The position numbers were made by a program, and so were the translations under genes. Positions 2 through 5,076 of a stretch of DNA of 5,452 nt are shown piece by piece. This DNA is from Marine Group I thaumarchaeote (lineage in GTDB: Archaea; Thermoproteota; Nitrososphaeria; Nitrososphaerales; Nitrosopumilaceae). Below the pieces are notes generated by a model, which saw nothing but the letters and a program-made list of their open reading frames with translations, was not told the origin of the DNA and did not search any database. The DNA lies in the NCBI GenBank assembly GCA_044358425.1, contig CP054849.1, positions 722,099 through 727,550 on the forward strand, given 5' to 3'. Each line of letters begins with the position of its first letter. Position 1 is the stretch's first letter.

Positions 2-316
2 TGTACTCAATTAGACAACATAGATCTAATACATGATCGGGCAATAACAATATGCAGGAAGTTTACATTGGTTAGAACTAGAAGAGCCAATAGATATTGT
101 GTGGATTGTGGTGCAAGACTGGTATATTATCCCAGATTATCCAATCCAAAAGCACCAAATGAACACAGAGTGTTAGTTTATGCATGTCCAGATTGTACAG
201 ATGACTTTGAAAAACCAAAAATGTTTTCAATAAAAAGAAATCAAGTAGAAGATCCACTAGAAACTGTAGAAATTGAAATTACACAGTTACAGAAAAAAGT
301 AGCTTTAACAAAATAA
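2..316 (+). CDS. Small zinc-ribbon protein (CVDC...CPDC), probably 5'-partial at the window edge
   Basis: The listed ORF starts at TTG 68, but the same frame has no stop back to base 2 (translation CTQLDNIDLIHDRAITICRKFT...). That upstream stretch has coding-like composition (~34% G+C, D/H/R/T-rich rather than K/N/I/F-rich). There is no in-frame ATG before residue 52 of the listed ORF. Two CxxC pairs about 24 aa apart indicate a Zn-ribbon. Stop is TAA at 314-316. Confidence 0.55.
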   Translation, partial: CTQLDNIDLIHDRAITICRKFTLVRTRRANRYCVDCGARLVYYPRLSNPKAPNEHRVLVYACPDCTDDFEKPKMFSIKRNQVEDPLETVEIEITQLQKKVALTK

Positions 317-320
317 TTTT

Positions 321-548
321 ATGACTTATTCAGAAAAACCAAGAAGTAATGCATGGTATTTGCTTCCAATATTCATAGGAATGATTGGAGGAATTATTGG
401 CTATTTGATTATTAGAAAAGATGATCCGCGTAAAGCAAAAAATTGCATATACATAGGAATTGTGATGATGGTAATTGGAATTATTTTCAATATCATGTTA
501 TTAGGAGTCGACGTTGTGGGGAATCCAGGCTTTAATGTTAACGTCTAA
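321..548 (+). CDS. Small integral membrane protein with two predicted TM helices
   Basis: ATG start lies 4 nt after the upstream stop, so the two genes look like an operon. Two hydrophobic segments (WYLLPIFIGMIGGIIGYLII and CIYIGIVMMVIGIIFNIMLLGV) are separated by a basic loop (RKDDPRKAKN). From memory (unverified), the SNAWYLLPIF..GG motif resembles a 2-TM module common in archaeal proteins. Confidence 0.7.
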   Translation: MTYSEKPRSNAWYLLPIFIGMIGGIIGYLIIRKDDPRKAKNCIYIGIVMMVIGIIFNIMLLGVDVVGNPGFNVNV

Positions 549-673: not shown

Positions 674-1123
674 ATGAGTGCATCAAGAATGAGAGATAAT
701 GTAGAAAGATGGTTAATTCATGAAAGTTTACCATTTGATCAAGTCAAAAGTGAAGAAAACACATTCCAAATTCGAGTAAAACATGCAGGCCAATACGGGA
801 TACCAGTAGATATTTTTGAACCAAAAGCACAATTAGGAATTCTAGTAATAGGGGCAAAAATAGAAATGAAGAATAATCAAATTATCAGGTACAGGGGATT
901 TAATGAAGAAGAAAGGACAAAATTTGCCAATAAAGTTTCAGATTTTTGTAATTCAATTGAAGCAATTAGTAAAATAATCAACGAAGATGGAAAACAAAAA
1001 ATTGCAGTGTATGTTGTATTAGATGACAAAGATAACATCAACCAACAAACAATGTTTGAAGCAATAGACAGTGTTTCAGATAAACATGAAAAAACAGCCA
1101 GGTTTCTATTAAAAACATTTTAA
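674..1123 (+). CDS. Conserved hypothetical cytoplasmic protein (possibly the archaeal DUF2299/YbjN-like family; family recalled from memory, unverified)
   Basis: 149-aa ATG ORF with balanced, non-low-complexity composition and no TM segment or signal peptide. No competing ORF overlaps it. Confidence 0.8.
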   Translation: MSASRMRDNVERWLIHESLPFDQVKSEENTFQIRVKHAGQYGIPVDIFEPKAQLGILVIGAKIEMKNNQIIRYRGFNEEERTKFANKVSDFCNSIEAISKIINEDGKQKIAVYVVLDDKDNINQQTMFEAIDSVSDKHEKTARFLLKTF

Positions 1124-1165
1124 AAAATTATAGTTGAAAAATGGACAAACTATGTCTTCCCTTAA

Positions 1166-1177
1166 GGGGGGTAAAAC
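1166..1177 (-). repeat. G6/C6 motif copy A (reads GTTTTACCCCCC on the - strand)
   Basis: + strand reads GGGGGGTAAAAC. It overlaps a perfect 10-bp palindrome CCCTTAAGGG at 1159-1168. AGGGGGGTA (1165-1173) is the inverted repeat of TACCCCCCT (1658-1666). Confidence 0.8.
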
Positions 1178-1336
1178 AACAAAATATTATCAAAAAACAA
1201 ATCATGTGATAATGTGATGAAATTTTTGTAAATGATATTATTTAAAAAATGAACAAAAATATCCATAAAAAAATATTTTTGAAAGTGAATGAACAAAATA
1301 GCAAATAATGATAAAAATACAAGATCATGCCTACGC

Positions 1337-1348
1337 GTTAAACCCCCC
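1337..1348 (+). repeat. G6/C6 motif copy B (GTTAAACCCCCC); left arm of a perfect 12-bp inverted repeat
   Basis: Exact reverse complement of 1405-1416, with a 56-nt spacer. Confidence 0.9.
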
Positions 1349-1404
1349 TATGAAAAAAGGAGTTTCAGGCATATGATGAAATTTTGGAAAACAGGTATTT
1401 TGAT

Positions 1405-1416
1405 GGGGGGTTTAAC
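1405..1416 (-). repeat. G6/C6 motif copy C (GGGGGGTTTAAC on +); right arm of the 12-bp inverted repeat
   Basis: Exact reverse complement of 1337-1348. Extended to 1406-1427, it is also an 18/22 Watson-Crick inverted match to 1492-1513. Confidence 0.9.
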
Positions 1417-1502
1417 ACTTATGCCTAGATGCAAAAAGCAAGTGTAATTCCACCAAGGTATCCCAACAAAGGATGGGCAATCTTTCTAAAGTAGGCGTAA
1501 AA

Positions 1503-1513
1503 GCTAAACCCCC
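1503..1513 (+). repeat. G6/C6 motif copy D (GCTAAACCCCC, degenerate)
   Basis: Matches copy B at 10 of 11 positions. With its upstream TAGGCGTAAAA it forms an imperfect 22-nt inverted repeat with 1406-1427. Confidence 0.75.
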
Positions 1514-1657
1514 ACAAATTAAGTGAATTTGTAGAAAAAATCCACAGAAATTGAGCAAATATTTCCCAAAAATGAATTTGAAAAGAAGTACAATCCAGGT
1601 AAAAAATAATTCAAAATAATGAAATTTATGAAAAAATAGTCAATTAATCGTTCCAAA

Positions 1658-1665
1658 TACCCCCC
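1658..1665 (+). repeat. G6/C6 motif copy E (TACCCCCC)
   Basis: CCCCCCTAT (1660-1668) directly repeats 1343-1351. TACCCCCCT is the inverted partner of 1165-1173. The following TATTTTGA (1666-1673) repeats 1396-1403. Confidence 0.75.
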
Positions 1666-1736
1666 TATTTTGACATAATTTTTCCCCTCCAATGTAAAAA
1701 ACTTCAAAATACCAAAACGAAAATTTACGTTGCAAC

Positions 1737-1743
1737 TATATAT
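1737..1743 (+). promoter_or_regulatory. TATA box (TATATAT) for the 1764 gene
   Basis: Sits at -27 to -21 relative to ATG 1764, consistent with an archaeal promoter driving a leaderless transcript. Confidence 0.4.
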
Positions 1744-1763
1744 CAAAAAGTGAGTGACAAATT

Positions 1764-2249
1764 ATGGCACGAATGGGCTTAGTAATTGTAATTGGAGCAA
1801 TAATTGGTTCAATGATACTAGCAAATTACATGTACATGCAATATCAAACTAATTTCATCGAAGTTAGTGAAGGGGAAACAGTAGTCGTAGGGCCAGTAGA
1901 ATACATAGTAACTTTTGAGGGCACCCATGAGGGGGATAAAGATACAGAGCCAGAAAATACATTTGTAAAAATTGGGATTATTGCAAAAAATATCAGTGAT
2001 GAAAATACAGTTGTGTCCGGAGGACAATTTTTCCTGATAGATGAAAAGGATCAAAAACATAAGGCAGTTTTTGGTGAATTTTCATCAAAAGACCTATGGT
2101 TGGTAGGATTAGAACCAAACAAACCAATTGAAGTTACAACACAATTTGACATTCCATTTGATGAGGATGAAAATTATAAAATTGTCATAAGACCACAAAA
2201 GGATCAAGCAACAGTAGATACGGCATCAATTTGTCTAACAAATTGTTGA
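1764..2249 (+). CDS. Membrane-anchored beta-rich protein, DUF4352-like (Ig-like fold) ectodomain
   Basis: 161-aa ATG ORF with an N-terminal TM anchor (GLVIVIGAIIGSMILANYMYM). The rest shows the pattern I associate with DUF4352: a short V..V.Y.V strand, then F.K..I...N.S, then a ...FFLID...Q.H segment. The family assignment is from memory and was not searched. Confidence 0.8.
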   Translation: MARMGLVIVIGAIIGSMILANYMYMQYQTNFIEVSEGETVVVGPVEYIVTFEGTHEGDKDTEPENTFVKIGIIAKNISDENTVVSGGQFFLIDEKDQKHKAVFGEFSSKDLWLVGLEPNKPIEVTTQFDIPFDEDENYKIVIRPQKDQATVDTASICLTNC

Positions 2250-2351
2250 TCGATAAATAATAAAAAATAAAAAAAGTGTCAAATTTTATTATAGTAAGCG
2301 TAGTATTGTGTGACTTTTACTACATAACAGATACTATTTTTGAAAAAAGTC

Positions 2352-2750
2352 ATGGCAATATCTAAAGCCAAAAGAGCTGAAGCAGCTAAGAAAGCAGCAA
2401 GAACTCGAAAGAGGAATGCAGCTAAGAAAGCAGCAGAAGCACTAAAGGCAGCAGCAGCTCGTAAGAGAAAGGCAGCAGCAACTCGAAGGAAGAATGCAGC
2501 TAAGAAAGCAGCACCAAAGAGAAAAACTGCAGCTAAGAAAAAGGCCGCTCCAAAACGTAAGGCAGCTAAAAAGAAAGCAGCACCAAAACGCAAAGCTGCA
2601 AAGAGAAAGGCCGCTCCAAAACGAAAAACTGCAGCTAAGAAAGCAGCTCCAAAGAGAAAGGCAGCTAAAAAGAAAGCAGCACCAAAACGTAAAGCTGCTC
2701 CAAAACGCAAAGCCGCTCCAAAGAGAAAGGCAGCTAAACGAAAACGTTAA
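2352..2750 (+). CDS. Extremely basic Lys/Ala/Arg/Pro-rich repeat protein (8 x AAPKRK), resembling a histone H1 tail; putative nucleic-acid-binding or chromatin protein
   Basis: The tracked ORF starts at TTG 2340; I prefer the in-frame ATG at 2352 (MAISKAKR...). The protein is about 132 aa with only 2 acidic residues (both E), no aromatics, and AAPKRK(T)AAKK(K) units. An oligo-T run follows the stop. The other two open frames over this repeat give implausible FGAA- or LQ-rich low-complexity products. Confidence 0.7.
   Translation: MAISKAKRAEAAKKAARTRKRNAAKKAAEALKAAAARKRKAAATRRKNAAKKAAPKRKTAAKKKAAPKRKAAKKKAAPKRKAAKRKAAPKRKTAAKKAAPKRKAAKKKAAPKRKAAPKRKAAPKRKAAKRKR
2508..2747 (+). repeat. In-frame imperfect tandem repeats (18-36 nt units) with a higher-order ~99-102-nt duplication
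   Basis: An exact 32-nt repeat AAGGCAGCTAAAAAGAAAGCAGCACCAAAACG occurs at 2559-2590 and 2658-2689, a 99-nt period. GAAAAACTGCAGCTAAGAAA occurs at 2521-2540 and 2623-2642. Confidence 0.9.
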
Positions 2751-2794: not shown

Positions 2795-2819
2795 ATATTT
2801 CTAAATTCGAATTTAGAAA
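2795..2819. repeat. Copy 2 of the shared palindromic element (25 nt identical to 581-605; perfect palindrome over 2798-2819)
   Basis: ATATTTCTAAATTCGAATTTAGAAA was verified base by base against 581-605. It lies between the convergent 3' ends at 2750 (+) and 2843 (-). Confidence 0.9.
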
Positions 2820-2831
2820 CATTATAAATCC

Positions 2832-2858
2832 ACAGATGTAAATCAATCAGACATCTGT
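2832..2858. repeat. Hairpin-capable inverted repeat ACAGATGT / ACATCTGT (8-bp stem, 11-nt loop)
   Basis: All 8 pairs are Watson-Crick. The loop and 3' arm overlap the stop codon and last codons of the - strand gene 2843-3274. Confidence 0.6.
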
Positions 2859-3274
2859 AACTCAGGCAAAACAAAAATGTTTTCAGGCTTAATTTTCAAA
2901 ATGATTCGTTTCTCATTTTCTTGTTTAAAGGGATAACTAGGACGTCCCATATACTGTTGAGTTAATTTATCTGCATGAGAGTAATCAGCATCAGAAATTA
3001 TTTCAATTACTTTACCTCGAATTGTTGTCATATCAAGAGGATTATCATTGGAGGTAACGGACACTGCAACACGAGGGTCACGTAGGATATTTTTGTGTTT
3101 TATCCTACCTTTTGCAGTATTTACTAAGATAAATCCATCTTCATAATTTGCCCAAACAGGAGAAACCTGGGGGGAACCATCTTTCATTATAGTTGCAATG
3201 AAAACAAGATTTTTTTCTGAAAATAATTTTACAACTTTTTCATCAGTCATTTTTCTACAATTTGTAACATCCAT
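2843..3274 (-). CDS. Pyridoxamine 5'-phosphate oxidase family / F420-dependent-type flavin-binding split-barrel protein
   Basis: 143 aa. The pattern LVFIATIMKDGSPQVSPVWANYEDGFILVNTAKGRIKHKNILRDPRVAVSV matches the PPOX-family N-terminal signature (A.L.T...dG.P.v.PvW...dg....t....K..N...nPrv..sv). An alternative start is M9 at 3250. A TAAATTTT box lies at about -29 to -22 from ATG 3274. Confidence 0.85.
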   Translation of the reverse strand: MDVTNCRKMTDEKVVKLFSEKNLVFIATIMKDGSPQVSPVWANYEDGFILVNTAKGRIKHKNILRDPRVAVSVTSNDNPLDMTTIRGKVIEIISDADYSHADKLTQQYMGRPSYPFKQENEKRIILKIKPENIFVLPELQMSD

Positions 3275-3382: not shown

Positions 3383-3886
3383 TTATTTTTTATTGGATTT
3401 TTCAAGCACGTTAGTCATTGCCCTATTCATGATTTCCATTACCAAATATTGCGAATATTCATTAGATTTCTTACCCTTAGATTTACCAGTTTTAGGTCCA
3501 AGAGATTTGAGAATCTTTTCAATTTTCTCAGATGTATTATCAATGATTTTTGAATATGTTGAATCAAAGTTTTCAGGTGTTTGAAAATCTAAGAGTTTTG
3601 TAGAAGTGCTGTAAAATTTAGTGATAGCACCTCTAGATTCTTCAATTCTTGCAATTTCAATTAGTCCAGAATTTTTTAAAATTTCTAAATGATGTCTTAC
3701 TGTAGTAAGTGCTTTTTTGAATCCGTGTTTTTTTAATGCAGTGGAAATTTGATCAGCAGACATTGTCTGTCGATATAGAATTTCTACTATTTTTGCTCGT
3801 GCAGGGTCTTCAATTGCGCGTGCATCATCTGTGCTCGTAGTAACAATACGATTTACTTTAATCTCTTTTTCTAATAATGTAGACAT
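3383..3886 (-). CDS. ArsR/SmtB-like winged helix-turn-helix transcriptional regulator with a ~70-aa C-terminal extension
   Basis: 167 aa with an ATG start. The segment DPARAKIVEILYRQTMSADQISTALKK....LTTVRHHLEILKNSGLIEIARIEESRGAITKFY fits the ArsR-type HTH plus wing pattern (D..R..Il..L......s...ia..l.....tvs.HL..L...GLv......G....Y). Confidence 0.85.
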   Translation of the reverse strand: MSTLLEKEIKVNRIVTTSTDDARAIEDPARAKIVEILYRQTMSADQISTALKKHGFKKALTTVRHHLEILKNSGLIEIARIEESRGAITKFYSTSTKLLDFQTPENFDSTYSKIIDNTSEKIEKILKSLGPKTGKSKGKKSNEYSQYLVMEIMNRAMTNVLEKSNKK

Positions 3887-4242: not shown

Positions 4243-5076
4243 CTAAAGAGTTAATCCAGTTAATTTCTCATATGCAATGACATATCTTTGAGTAATTGTT
4301 TGAATTATTTCTGATGGGATTTCTGGTGCGACTGGTTCCTTTCCATTGTTTCGGTCAACTTCAAATTGTTTTTGGTAACCATTAGCAGTTAACCAATCAC
4401 GCAAAATTTGTTTATCGTATGATTCTTGAATTTTTCCAACGTCATACGAGTCTTTTGGCCACAATCTATATTCATCAGGGCCAATTGAATCCCCTAAAAC
4501 AATTTCACCGTCTAAAATTCCAAATTCCAATTTTAAATCTGCCAAAATAAAACCAGCATTATCAGCAACAGTAGCCATTTGATTATAGATATCAATAGAT
4601 GTTTTTTCTAACCAAGAGTACTGTTCTTCAGAAACTAGATTCATTTCTAATGCTTTTGTTTTATCAACAGGGATATCATGTTCAGACTTTGTTGTTGGAT
4701 CAAAAAAAGGCTCAGTTAGTTTTGCAGCCATTTTAGTATCAGTATCTTTAGGTAATTTGACATCCCCATTTTTCCATCGACCAATCAAACTACCATAAAA
4801 ATAGCCTCGAACTACACATTCCATTGGAATCATTTTCATTTTTTTTACAGAAATTTCTGTTTCAGAGTCTCGTTTTACAAAGTGATTCTTAACATCTAAT
4901 TTGTCAAACCAAAACTCTGCAAATCGACACAAAACTTCTCCCTTTTTTGGGATATCCTGTTTGAATTTTACATCATATGCGGAAACACGGTTGGAGAATT
5001 TGAAAAGTAGTGTATTTTCATCTACGTCATATAGATCCTTCACTTTACCAGAAGTTAAAAAATTCAAACAATTCAA
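4243..5076 (-). CDS. purC: Phosphoribosylaminoimidazole-succinocarboxamide (SAICAR) synthase
   Basis: 277 aa carrying the hallmark SAICAR synthetase motifs: GKVKDLY near the N-terminus, SNRVSAYD, LADLKLEFG, the DSIGPDEYRLW region and YDKQILRDWL. The start is TTG (5074-5076). There is no in-frame ATG or GTG between it and the upstream in-frame stop at 5101-5103. Confidence 0.95.
   Translation of the reverse strand: MNCLNFLTSGKVKDLYDVDENTLLFKFSNRVSAYDVKFKQDIPKKGEVLCRFAEFWFDKLDVKNHFVKRDSETEISVKKMKMIPMECVVRGYFYGSLIGRWKNGDVKLPKDTDTKMAAKLTEPFFDPTTKSEHDIPVDKTKALEMNLVSEEQYSWLEKTSIDIYNQMATVADNAGFILADLKLEFGILDGEIVLGDSIGPDEYRLWPKDSYDVGKIQESYDKQILRDWLTANGYQKQFEVDRNNGKEPVAPEIPSEIIQTITQRYVIAYEKLTGLTL

Follow-up and report, generated by a model that had tools for sequence, protein, structure and literature searches.

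A previously undescribed 187-nt non-coding element with potentially competing pairings, conserved at a single locus across the Nitrosopumilales

A cluster of interlocking inverted and direct repeats in an A/T-rich thaumarchaeal sequence raises the question of whether the repeats belong to a functional RNA, to a group of sites acting at the level of DNA or to a mobile relic. The repeats sit in the 640-nt spacer (1124–1763) between the DUF2299 and DUF4352 genes of the window, by which the whole analysed stretch of 5,452 nucleotides is meant, and the closest relatives of its genes are found in Nitrosopumilus MAGs. In longer relatives a large ribosomal-protein operon (L3 through L6, including RNase P p29) ends with p82, p75 and DUF2299, and the pur genes on the opposite side point toward the spacer (Table 1). 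The initial annotation of the window interpreted the repeats as two mutually exclusive foldings within a G+C-rich island, with a regulatory leader as its main idea.

The repeats themselves were as that annotation described them. The 12-bp inverted repeat is perfect, 1337–1348 (GTTAAACCCCCC) complementing 1405–1416 (GGGGGGTTTAAC) along its whole length, and together with a closing helix of 1327–1334 (ATGCCTAC) and 1491–1498 (GTAGGCGT), comprising 7 Watson-Crick pairs and one G-T, it forms scheme I. Scheme II pairs 1406–1427 with 1492–1513, two arms of 22 nt that are 82% complementary. ATGCCTA is directly repeated at 1327–1333 and 1421–1427, lying 3 and 4 nt outside the 12-bp arms, and AGGCAT at 1367–1372 is complementary to both ATGCCT copies. 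The G+C fraction of the island is 0.34–0.42 compared to 0.17–0.25 in its flanks, and the T5 tract on the minus strand derives from an A5 at 1313–1317. By itself the 12-bp inverted repeat is only modestly unusual: among 1000 dinucleotide shuffles of the spacer 20 produced a perfect inverted repeat of at least 12 bp within 140 nt, as did 36 of 200 when the whole window was shuffled. One shuffle in 1000 attained the five G5+/C5+ runs that the spacer contains. The folding energy of the window element was unremarkable, with z values of -1.68 on the plus strand and -3.50 on the minus strand. The strong evidence that the feature is real is its conservation, with edges at approximately 1327 and 1513.

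Conservation was examined by comparing 80 loci around DUF2299 homologues, one genome per species. BLAST revealed that beyond the closest relatives the spacer is conserved at approximately 1318–1527 only, with 67–94% identity, apart from a 30-nt promoter block of DUF4352 (1720–1749) which is the only other conserved piece of the spacer. An nhmmer search against the window delimited the element to 1326–1513 (E = 7e-51), and the nhmmer profile detected it in 70 of the 80 loci; five of the ten misses lack the flank, giving 70 of 75 informative Nitrosopumilaceae loci. The 65 full-length genome copies, found without a length constraint, measure 186–187 nt and were aligned over 190 columns with a single gapped column (alignment A1). 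Metagenomes were scanned with a pattern of three invariant motifs separated by two gaps, each allowed to vary by ±3 nt, which gave at least 120 contigs; the full element was present in 120 of the 120 matches listed, with scores of 198–43 bits and lengths of 186–188 nt. A second, almost gap-free alignment contained 149 sequences with a mean identity of 74% (A2). The element matched once per locus in the genome loci and metagenome contigs listed, and no homologue was found in the viral contigs, phages and plasmids searched. The island is therefore a real, selected non-coding unit with sharp edges, under purifying selection across lineages in which DUF2299 is 42–52% identical, and it is a single-locus, vertically inherited unit co-distributed with p82. 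Neither Rfam 15 nor the searchable literature (thaumarchaeal non-coding RNAs, origin and ORB data, motif strings) contained a description of the element, and the literature searched describes no non-coding RNA at this locus. The element is a previously undescribed, order-wide non-coding element of the Nitrosopumilales.

The element did not correspond to a small open reading frame, as stop codons fall in all six frames across the homologues with no shared open frame, and 3-base periodicity was absent (column entropy by phase 0.69/0.76/0.72). Rfam searches of the whole window with E values up to 10 gave nothing overlapping the element, and a permissive search of 1310–1530 gave chance-level snoRNA and miRNA matches only, with E values of at least 0.7 and bit scores far under the gathering thresholds. 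ARAGORN found 0 tRNA or tmRNA genes in the window and T-arm and D-arm motifs were not visible; archaeal tRNAs with unusual introns may evade this program. A C/D box sRNA was rejected, as the UGAUGA at 1374–1379 is specific to the group of the window and reads AUGUGA, ACCAUU or otherwise in relatives, the UGCC strand is not preceded by a CUGA, and the element, in contrast to C/D box sRNAs, has no conserved C and D boxes and is three times longer. Readings as an H/ACA RNA, a tRNA-like RNA or an RNase P RNA (CR-I/CR-V motifs) were dropped on inspection by eye, and a CRISPR mini-array was discarded because the sequence separating the 22-nt end repeats, 143 nt long, is itself conserved.

The element is framed by two end modules (AAAAGCUAAACCCCC-like) in direct orientation, has one inverted module (G6-8 UUKAAC) at its centre and carries short 'a' motifs oriented both ways. 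Of the direct repeats at the ends, the 5' copy reads ATGCCTAGGCGTTAAACCCCCC and the 3' copy GTGCGTAAAAGCTAAACCCCC. In three loci (L022, L032 and L055) 22 nt of the 3' module are exactly those of the 5' module, in other lineages the 5' module is TTCGTAAAAGCTAAACCCCC, identical to the 3' module, and in divergent lineages both end modules read ...AAAAGCTAAACCCCC. The a* motif (TTAGGCA) is positioned between the 5' C-run and the G-run, and the middle of the element contains the inverted GGGGGG(G)TTKAAC followed by the second direct 'a' copy (TGCCTAG), while the 5' 100 nt form a quasi-palindrome matching its own reverse complement. Four conserved blocks, AUUUUUUCAAAA, GCAA, CAAACCACC and UCCCAGCUAAA, have no conserved partner. 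For the U-rich block no such partner was present in A1 or A2, and we can only infer that it may be a protein site (Sm-like). Within the 3' half C115, A116 and A123 are invariant and CACC and CCCAG nearly so, and neither covariation nor averaged base-pair probabilities gave a consistent helix over 1438–1470. The 3' C-run is directly followed by a T-run in most lineages; the window contains no T-run after 1513.

Table 1. Coordinates of the genes and sequence features of the window.
Feature	Position	Strand	Remark
p82, Zn-ribbon ORF	68–316	+	
p75, 75-aa membrane ORF	321–548	+	
DUF2299 gene	674–1123	+	
G-run CCCTTAAGGGGGG, ~160 nt upstream	1160–1171	+	G6-8 shared at this offset by the closest relatives alone (L001, L004, L005)
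A/T box, possible archaeal TATA	1298–1309	+	~20–28 nt upstream of the element
Entire element (187 nt)	1327–1513	+	sole widely conserved unit of the spacer besides the DUF4352 promoter block
5' module: 'a' ATGCCTAC (1327–1335), then 'b' GTTAAACCCCCC (1337–1348)	1327–1348	+	TAAACCCC invariant in A1 and A2
Motif a* TTTCAGGCATA	1364–1374	+	complements both 'a' copies; helices X and Y
U-rich block GAAATTTTGGAAAA, family consensus AUUUUUUCAAAA	1378–1391	+	columns nearly invariant in A1 and A2
Central inverted module b* GGGGGGTTTAAC	1405–1416	+	G82–G86 invariant; complements both C-run modules
Second direct copy a' TTATGCCTAG	1419–1428	+	3' strand of helix X
C/A-rich blocks of the 3' half (GCAA, AATTCCACCAAG, TCCCAACAAA)	1438–1470	+	apparently unpaired
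3' module GTAGGCGT, then b'' AAAAGCTAAACCCCC	1491–1513	+	G179, T181, A183 and C185–187 invariant
Candidate extra motif 'A-rich + CCCCCC + TATTTTGAC'	1655–1675	+	same strand; membership of the element uncertain
DUF4352 gene	1764–2249	+	
Alanine/lysine-rich basic ORF	2340–2750	+	
PNPOx-like gene	2843–3274	-	
ArsR-type regulator gene	3383–3886	-	
purC	4243–5076	-	

Three further features lie near the element. The extra motif downstream, in the form 'A-rich CCCCCC T(T)ATTTTGAC', occurs in approximately 35 loci, where its distance from the element is +333, about -115 or about -248; it is possibly a terminator-like signal or a remnant. The upstream G-run has no wider conservation and probably lies outside the element. 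When the flanks were aligned, (A)AAAnTTTCTAAAATRA appeared at the distance of the A/T box in many Nitrosopumilus loci; in group-B loci the box overlaps the stop codon of a small upstream ORF and in the high-GC loci L078 and L079 it is absent. It may be regarded as a weak candidate for a promoter TATA.

The genomic context of the element is dominated by p82, an order-specific Zn-ribbon gene closing the ribosomal-protein operon, whose 3' end the element adjoins. Homologues of p82 fall into 266 unnamed clusters restricted to the Nitrosopumilales (Nitrosopumilus, Nitrosotenuis, Nitrosotalea and Cenarchaeum). No family was assigned to p82 by Pfam or NCBIfam, comparison with the PDB gave a weak Zn-ribbon similarity to RNA polymerase subunits only, and the AlphaFold model, with a pLDDT of 52, was too poor for a fold search. 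Among the matches listed, the 117 pattern-found loci had p82 upstream on the same strand in 67 cases and convergent in 10, with the flank missing in 39; this gives p82 linkage in 77 of 78 informative metagenome loci, a single flanked locus lacking p82, and co-orientation of the element with the upstream genes in 67 of 77. In Nitrosopumilus the element comes after DUF2299 and before DUF4352, with spacings of approximately 50–2000 nt on the upstream side and 140–1300 nt on the downstream side and with frequently inserted genes. The element is inverted in L022, L032, L049 and 10 metagenome loci among the matches listed. In divergent metagenome lineages, where DUF2299 is 42–52% identical and p82 80–92% identical, the element begins approximately 18–20 nt after DUF2299 or about 50 nt after p82, and the next gene is usually a convergent PNPOx gene. 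Two of these loci (L138 and L157) have the stop codon of p82 inside the 5' block of the element, implying co-transcription.

Conservation at a single locus with variable distances on both sides and with inversions identifies the element as an independent unit, neither a leader nor a MITE. The initial annotation had favoured a cis-acting leader, in which a terminator and antiterminator would control DUF4352 as a riboswitch or attenuator. The element resembles bacterial platforms of this kind in having one strand, the G-run with a', that could pair with either of two exclusive partners, the 3' alternative being a C-run followed by a U-tract in most lineages, and in Nitrosopumilus DUF4352 is indeed the next gene on the plus strand. 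However, DUF4352 begins approximately 140 to 1300 nt away with other genes inserted and is preceded by a strongly conserved promoter block of its own, several genomes have the element in inverted orientation, and the deep lineages have no DUF4352, the next gene there being the convergent PNPOx gene. In contrast to the bacterial platforms the element does not stand upstream of a regulated gene, and it has neither a recognisable aptamer nor a match to an Rfam riboswitch; moreover, archaeal termination relies on U-tracts and aCPSF1 and not on hairpins. The leader reading is largely refuted by this context and we consider it very improbable.

The second suggestion, a MITE or other mobile relic with ATGCCTA as a quasi target-site duplication, is refuted by the present data, and a mobile origin is hardly conceivable. 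The element has the small size, the non-coding character and the terminal-like direct repeats with an internal inverted repeat of a MITE, and its hypervariable flanks acquire genes. Unlike a MITE it is found at one syntenic locus, with one copy per locus in the genome loci and metagenome contigs listed, linked to p82 with the frequency given above and absent from the viral, phage and plasmid collections, and it is inherited vertically under selection. The ATGCCTA copies are conserved internal parts of the element that covary with an internal partner, with no target-site duplication abutting the element.

The proximity to the operon could also indicate an elaborate 3'-UTR or terminator of p82, p75 and DUF2299, which would stabilise or end the mRNA with no separate RNA function. 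In deep lineages the element follows the final gene of the operon at a distance of approximately 18–50 nt; this position, the p82 stop codon inside the element in L138 and L157 and the pairing of G-run and C-run followed by a T-run are all consistent with such a role, and neighbouring genes are trailed by short G4-6/C4-6 hairpins with T-runs. We nevertheless find this explanation unlikely: in at least 10 loci the element runs inverted toward p82, a convergent arrangement that precludes a role as the 3' UTR of that gene, in Nitrosopumilus up to 2 kb and other genes lie between it and the operon, and the sequence conservation over 187 nt goes far beyond the needs of a terminator.

The pairings were evaluated on both alignments. 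RNAalifold on the 65 and the 149 sequences returned only an invariant C6:G6 helix with a covariation term of -0.08, the pairs of which are present in 149 of the 149 sequences of A2 and never vary. Scheme I was 84% paired overall on A1 (90.8% for the 12-bp helix and 74% for the closing helix), which was not above shuffles; one pair of the closing helix formed in 14 of 65 sequences, and within the 12-bp helix the UUAAA part varies on its 3' strand with no compensation from an invariant 5' strand. Scheme II was 76% paired on A1, with pair 101:170 in 17 of 65 sequences only, and outside its G/C pairs the covariation was no better than in shuffles. The initial annotation had suggested covariation as the means of deciding between the two schemes, but neither of them rose above shuffles, and the only pairing with significant covariation was that of AGGCAU with either AUGCCU copy, which it had given as a side remark.

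This pairing exists in two forms. Helix X (a*:a', 1366–1374 with 1419–1427) was 85.2% paired in A2 compared to 79.2 in shuffles, with 66 double-changed cells compared to 25.5 ± 4.0 and slid controls giving at most 43%. Helix Y (a:a*, 1327–1335 with 1364–1372) was 76.5% paired in A2 compared to 72.0 in shuffles, with 70 double-changed cells compared to 37.4. For each helix 0 of 500 shuffles matched the observed percentage paired, double-changed cells or covariation score, and slid controls were far lower; the shuffles ignore phylogeny, and the key changes may reflect few events. The covarying change is from GCCUA:UAGGC to UCGUA:UACGA or UCAUA:UAUGA, and the compensatory pairs of X are 45:103 (GC 89, CG 28, UG 7) and 47:101 (CG 108, AU 25). 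Where a and a' differ between lineages a* agrees with a', by 34 to 5 at the key column and 47 to 15 at the next; X is better supported than Y because a* follows a' rather than a. Both helices thus show compensatory substitutions, the pattern expected of a structured non-coding RNA, and the same pattern fits concerted DNA repeats.

In A2 the covariation of the whole of scheme II, of the sub-helix between a' and the 3' module and of the helix between the 5' C-run and the G-run was not above shuffles because their pairs hardly vary. The G-run is 90% paired with the 5' C-run and can also pair with the 3' C-run, both sets of pairs being invariant. Of the competing foldings originally proposed, the competition for the central strand (G-run and ATGCCT copy) is conserved throughout the family. 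Conservation does not extend to the closing helix or to the outer pairs of scheme II. Averaged base-pair probabilities consistently predicted only the helix of 5' C-run and G-run (p ~0.5–0.6), while the minimum-energy fold of deep marine lineages combines helix Y, a local a' hairpin and the pairing of G-run with 3' C-run. Both alternatives of the initial annotation are thus realised in predicted folds, in separate lineages. Helix X together with either C-run helix would constitute a pseudoknot. A mid hairpin that a' forms with the UACGAA after it stands out in deep marine lineages but was rejected as a family feature, being 39.6% paired family-wide, and a three-pair A:U to U:A covariation of 1380–1382 with 1447–1449 could not be extended into a helix.

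Taken together, the conservation with its sharp boundaries, the lack of a coding frame, the synteny and the covariation of X and Y suggest that 1327–1513 probably specifies a small RNA of the plus strand, independent or derived from a 3' end, or an RNP scaffold with competing pairings. The choice of strand is consistent with several observations. G-U wobbles exceed A-C mismatches by 151:57 in X and by 59:3 in the helix of G-run and 3' C-run. In two divergent homologues the z values were approximately -2.6 on the element strand compared to -0.6 and -0.9 on the complement, and folding was better than in shuffles only on the former strand, while over 46 homologues the plus strand had slightly lower z (Wilcoxon p = 0.036, the samples not being independent). 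The orientation bias with the operon, the T-runs after the 3' C-run and the stop overlap in L138 and L157 point in the same direction.

Other results argue against an RNA. Over the 46 homologues the mean z was -1.35, weakly below shuffles, and the minus strand of the window folds better than the plus strand. The promoter evidence is weak and, as noted, the T-run is missing from the window. Most variable columns have no complementarity, yet no base has been gained or lost, and such unpaired variable columns at fixed length are more typical of spaced DNA protein sites than of RNA helices. The direct and inverted 'a' copies change in concert, as co-evolving DNA-binding sites would likewise.

These results are accommodated by a DNA-level explanation, in which the element would be a cluster of sites with fixed geometry for a sequence-specific protein, possibly p82, with an architectural, segregation, replication-associated or transcription-regulatory role. 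The composite site would consist of the dyad-like 'a', approximately 8 bp and a C/G string, direct at the ends and inverted in the middle. The invariant length and spacing with variable, non-complementary spacers, the joint shift of all 'a' copies between lineages (GCCTA to TCGTA), the palindromes GCCTAGGC and, in deep lineages, TTCGTAGATATACGAA, the quasi-palindromic 5' 100 bp and the weak RNA folding signal are all in agreement with it. However, conservation is continuous over 187 bp and extends beyond the repeats, a* tracks a' and not a, plus-strand G-U exceeds A-C, some hairpins of soil lineages need plus-strand wobbles, and the orientation follows the upstream operon in 67 loci versus 10 among the matches listed. 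We regard the DNA-level explanation as a genuine possibility, though not a likely one.

The layout of a dyad and a G/C string is reminiscent of the origin recognition boxes (ORB) at archaeal oriC. The ORB consensus is TTCCA-N-TGGAAAC followed by a G-string. The element shares with ORB sites a dyad-like motif, a spacer of approximately 8 bp, the G/C string (the ORB G-string is mentioned in PMC4010727) and direct and inverted copies around an A/T-rich segment. It differs from them in a sequence unrelated to the consensus and in conserved inter-repeat segments; an orc1/cdc6 gene is absent from the surrounding 10 kb, and the genes on both sides, including the ribosomal-protein operon, converge. 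A replication origin was accordingly judged unlikely and dropped, as no Cdc6/Orc1 Pfam family was found in 20 kb and the ribosomal-protein operon and pur genes converge on the element.

Among known RNAs, parallels to the proposed plus-strand RNA include trans-acting small RNAs. Staphylococcus RsaE and RNAIII act in trans and contain repeated C-rich UCCC seed motifs. The element is similar to this group in being lineage-restricted and independently placed, in belonging to the class of approximately 100–200 nt and in having several identical C-rich motifs and a U-rich tract; it is dissimilar in that its C-motifs have an internal complementary G-run and in its far stricter conservation of length and sequence. 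Archaeal sRNAs have been reviewed (PMC4152357). Like 3'-end-associated archaeal sRNAs, among them C/D box sRNA genes that overlap the 3' ends of ORFs and sRNAs derived from 3' UTRs, the element lies right after an upstream stop codon, which it overlaps in two loci, in the same orientation.

The element may be pictured as a gene-like unit for a small non-coding RNA of approximately 187 nt, specific to the Nitrosopumilales and read on the plus strand, or alternatively as the source of an RNA derived from the 3' end of the transcript of the upstream operon. In such an RNA the central G-rich strand (GGGGGG-UUKAAC followed by the 'a' copy) would have two mutually exclusive partners, one in two parts (the 5' C-run and the a* segment inside the element), the other the 3' module as one contiguous stretch, the end modules being identical and C-rich (AAAAGCUAAACCCCC). 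The a*:a' helix (1366–1374:1419–1427) would be the part kept by compensatory evolution. On this sequence evidence we infer that the RNA could act as a conformational toggle or as a multi-site RNP scaffold, with the C/A-rich and U-rich single strands as contact sites. The Zn-ribbon protein p82, tightly linked and equally lineage-restricted, would be a plausible partner. The most specific form of this proposal is a new class of archaeal riboregulator or RNP RNA, a two-state molecule with a G-tract toggling between identical C-tract modules and acting with p82 at the end of the ribosomal-protein operon, which we put forward as speculative and rather doubtful.

To our knowledge almost nothing is known of the non-coding RNAs of the Nitrosopumilales, which are among the most abundant microbes of the ocean and major nitrifiers. 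The feature has been overlooked by annotation pipelines and offers a natural case of conserved competing pairings for structural study. Its retention as a single copy of fixed length, the link to an orphan Zn-ribbon protein and its absence from Rfam make it a candidate, open to testing, for an RNA or RNP of essential function or else for a novel cis element of the chromosome. If a two-state RNA acting with p82 were true, the most abundant archaea of the sea would have in the element a link to ribosome biogenesis or translation.

Two copies of the palindrome TTTCTAAATTCGAATTTAGAAA are present in the window, against an expectation of zero, and the same palindrome was found in 139 of 212 loci. 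Almost every lineage, with deep, soil and high-GC lineages among them, carries unaltered copies at two to three intergenic locations in each 6 kb, usually placed just 3' of stop codons or approximately 70–95 nt ahead of starts. The invariance of the palindrome at the sequence level suggests that it either binds a protein or forms a conserved hairpin acting as a terminator. The coordinates of this and the other features of the window are collected in the table.

Features of the window outside the element (the conserved 187-nt noncoding unit)
Feature	Window position	Strand	Description
Palindrome TTTCTAAATTCGAATTTAGAAA	585–604 and 2799–2818		perfect, 20–22 bp
Additional C6/G6 runs	1655–1675 and 1160–1171		outside the element
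Conserved block AAATTTACGTTGCAACTATATATCAAAAAG	1720–1749		30 nt, upstream of DUF4352
p82	68–316	+	82-aa CxxC...CxxC Zn-ribbon protein
A/K/R/P ORF	2340–2750	+	132–136 aa, nearly all A/K/R/P repeats (AAPKRKAAKKKA...)

The block AAATTTACGTTGCAACTATATATCAAAAAG is 96–100% identical in distant relatives, in which the rest of the spacer between DUF2299 and DUF4352 is unalignable. The block presumably comprises the promoter of DUF4352, with CTATATAT as the TATA box, together with a regulator site.

The p82 protein retains 80–92% identity across lineages in which the adjoining DUF2299 is only 42–52% identical, and the element always lies within about 40–1900 nt of the p82 3' end. A homologue search showed p82 to be confined to the Nitrosopumilales; no family was matched in Pfam or NCBIfam, and the AlphaFold model was unreliable, with a pLDDT of 52. 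The A/K/R/P ORF, for which a family search gave no match, forms a local island of 44–50% G+C with A strongly exceeding T; some relatives retain this ORF and others have lost it. A conserved small ORF of approximately 52 aa (MMKERFLQIDESAINESF...) is located directly 5' of the element in many Nitrosopumilus genomes; it is absent from the window, occurs approximately 250 nt upstream of the element in loci L011, L016, L018, L020 and others, is preceded by the motif AAAAACCCCCCTTATTT some 50–60 nt ahead of its start, and also had no match in a family search.

Within the element, two adjacent column pairs of the alignment, at window positions 1380–1382 and 1447–1449, co-switch between A:U and U:A from clade to clade, the two versions being GAAAUUUU/UAAUUCC and CAUUUUUU/CAAAACC. 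An attempted extension of this pairing gave no helix, and the co-switch could mark a short tertiary contact, or common descent alone could account for it.

Of the C6/G6 runs, CCAAATACCCCCCTATTTTGAC keeps fixed offsets where it recurs in relatives, and CCCTTAAGGGGGG is positioned 40 nt 3' of the DUF2299 stop codon. In other loci, short hairpins of the form G4-6-loop-C4-6, with a T-run on their 3' side, lie downstream of neighbouring genes. Together these runs and hairpins hint that these archaea may use an unusual terminator signal of the hairpin type.
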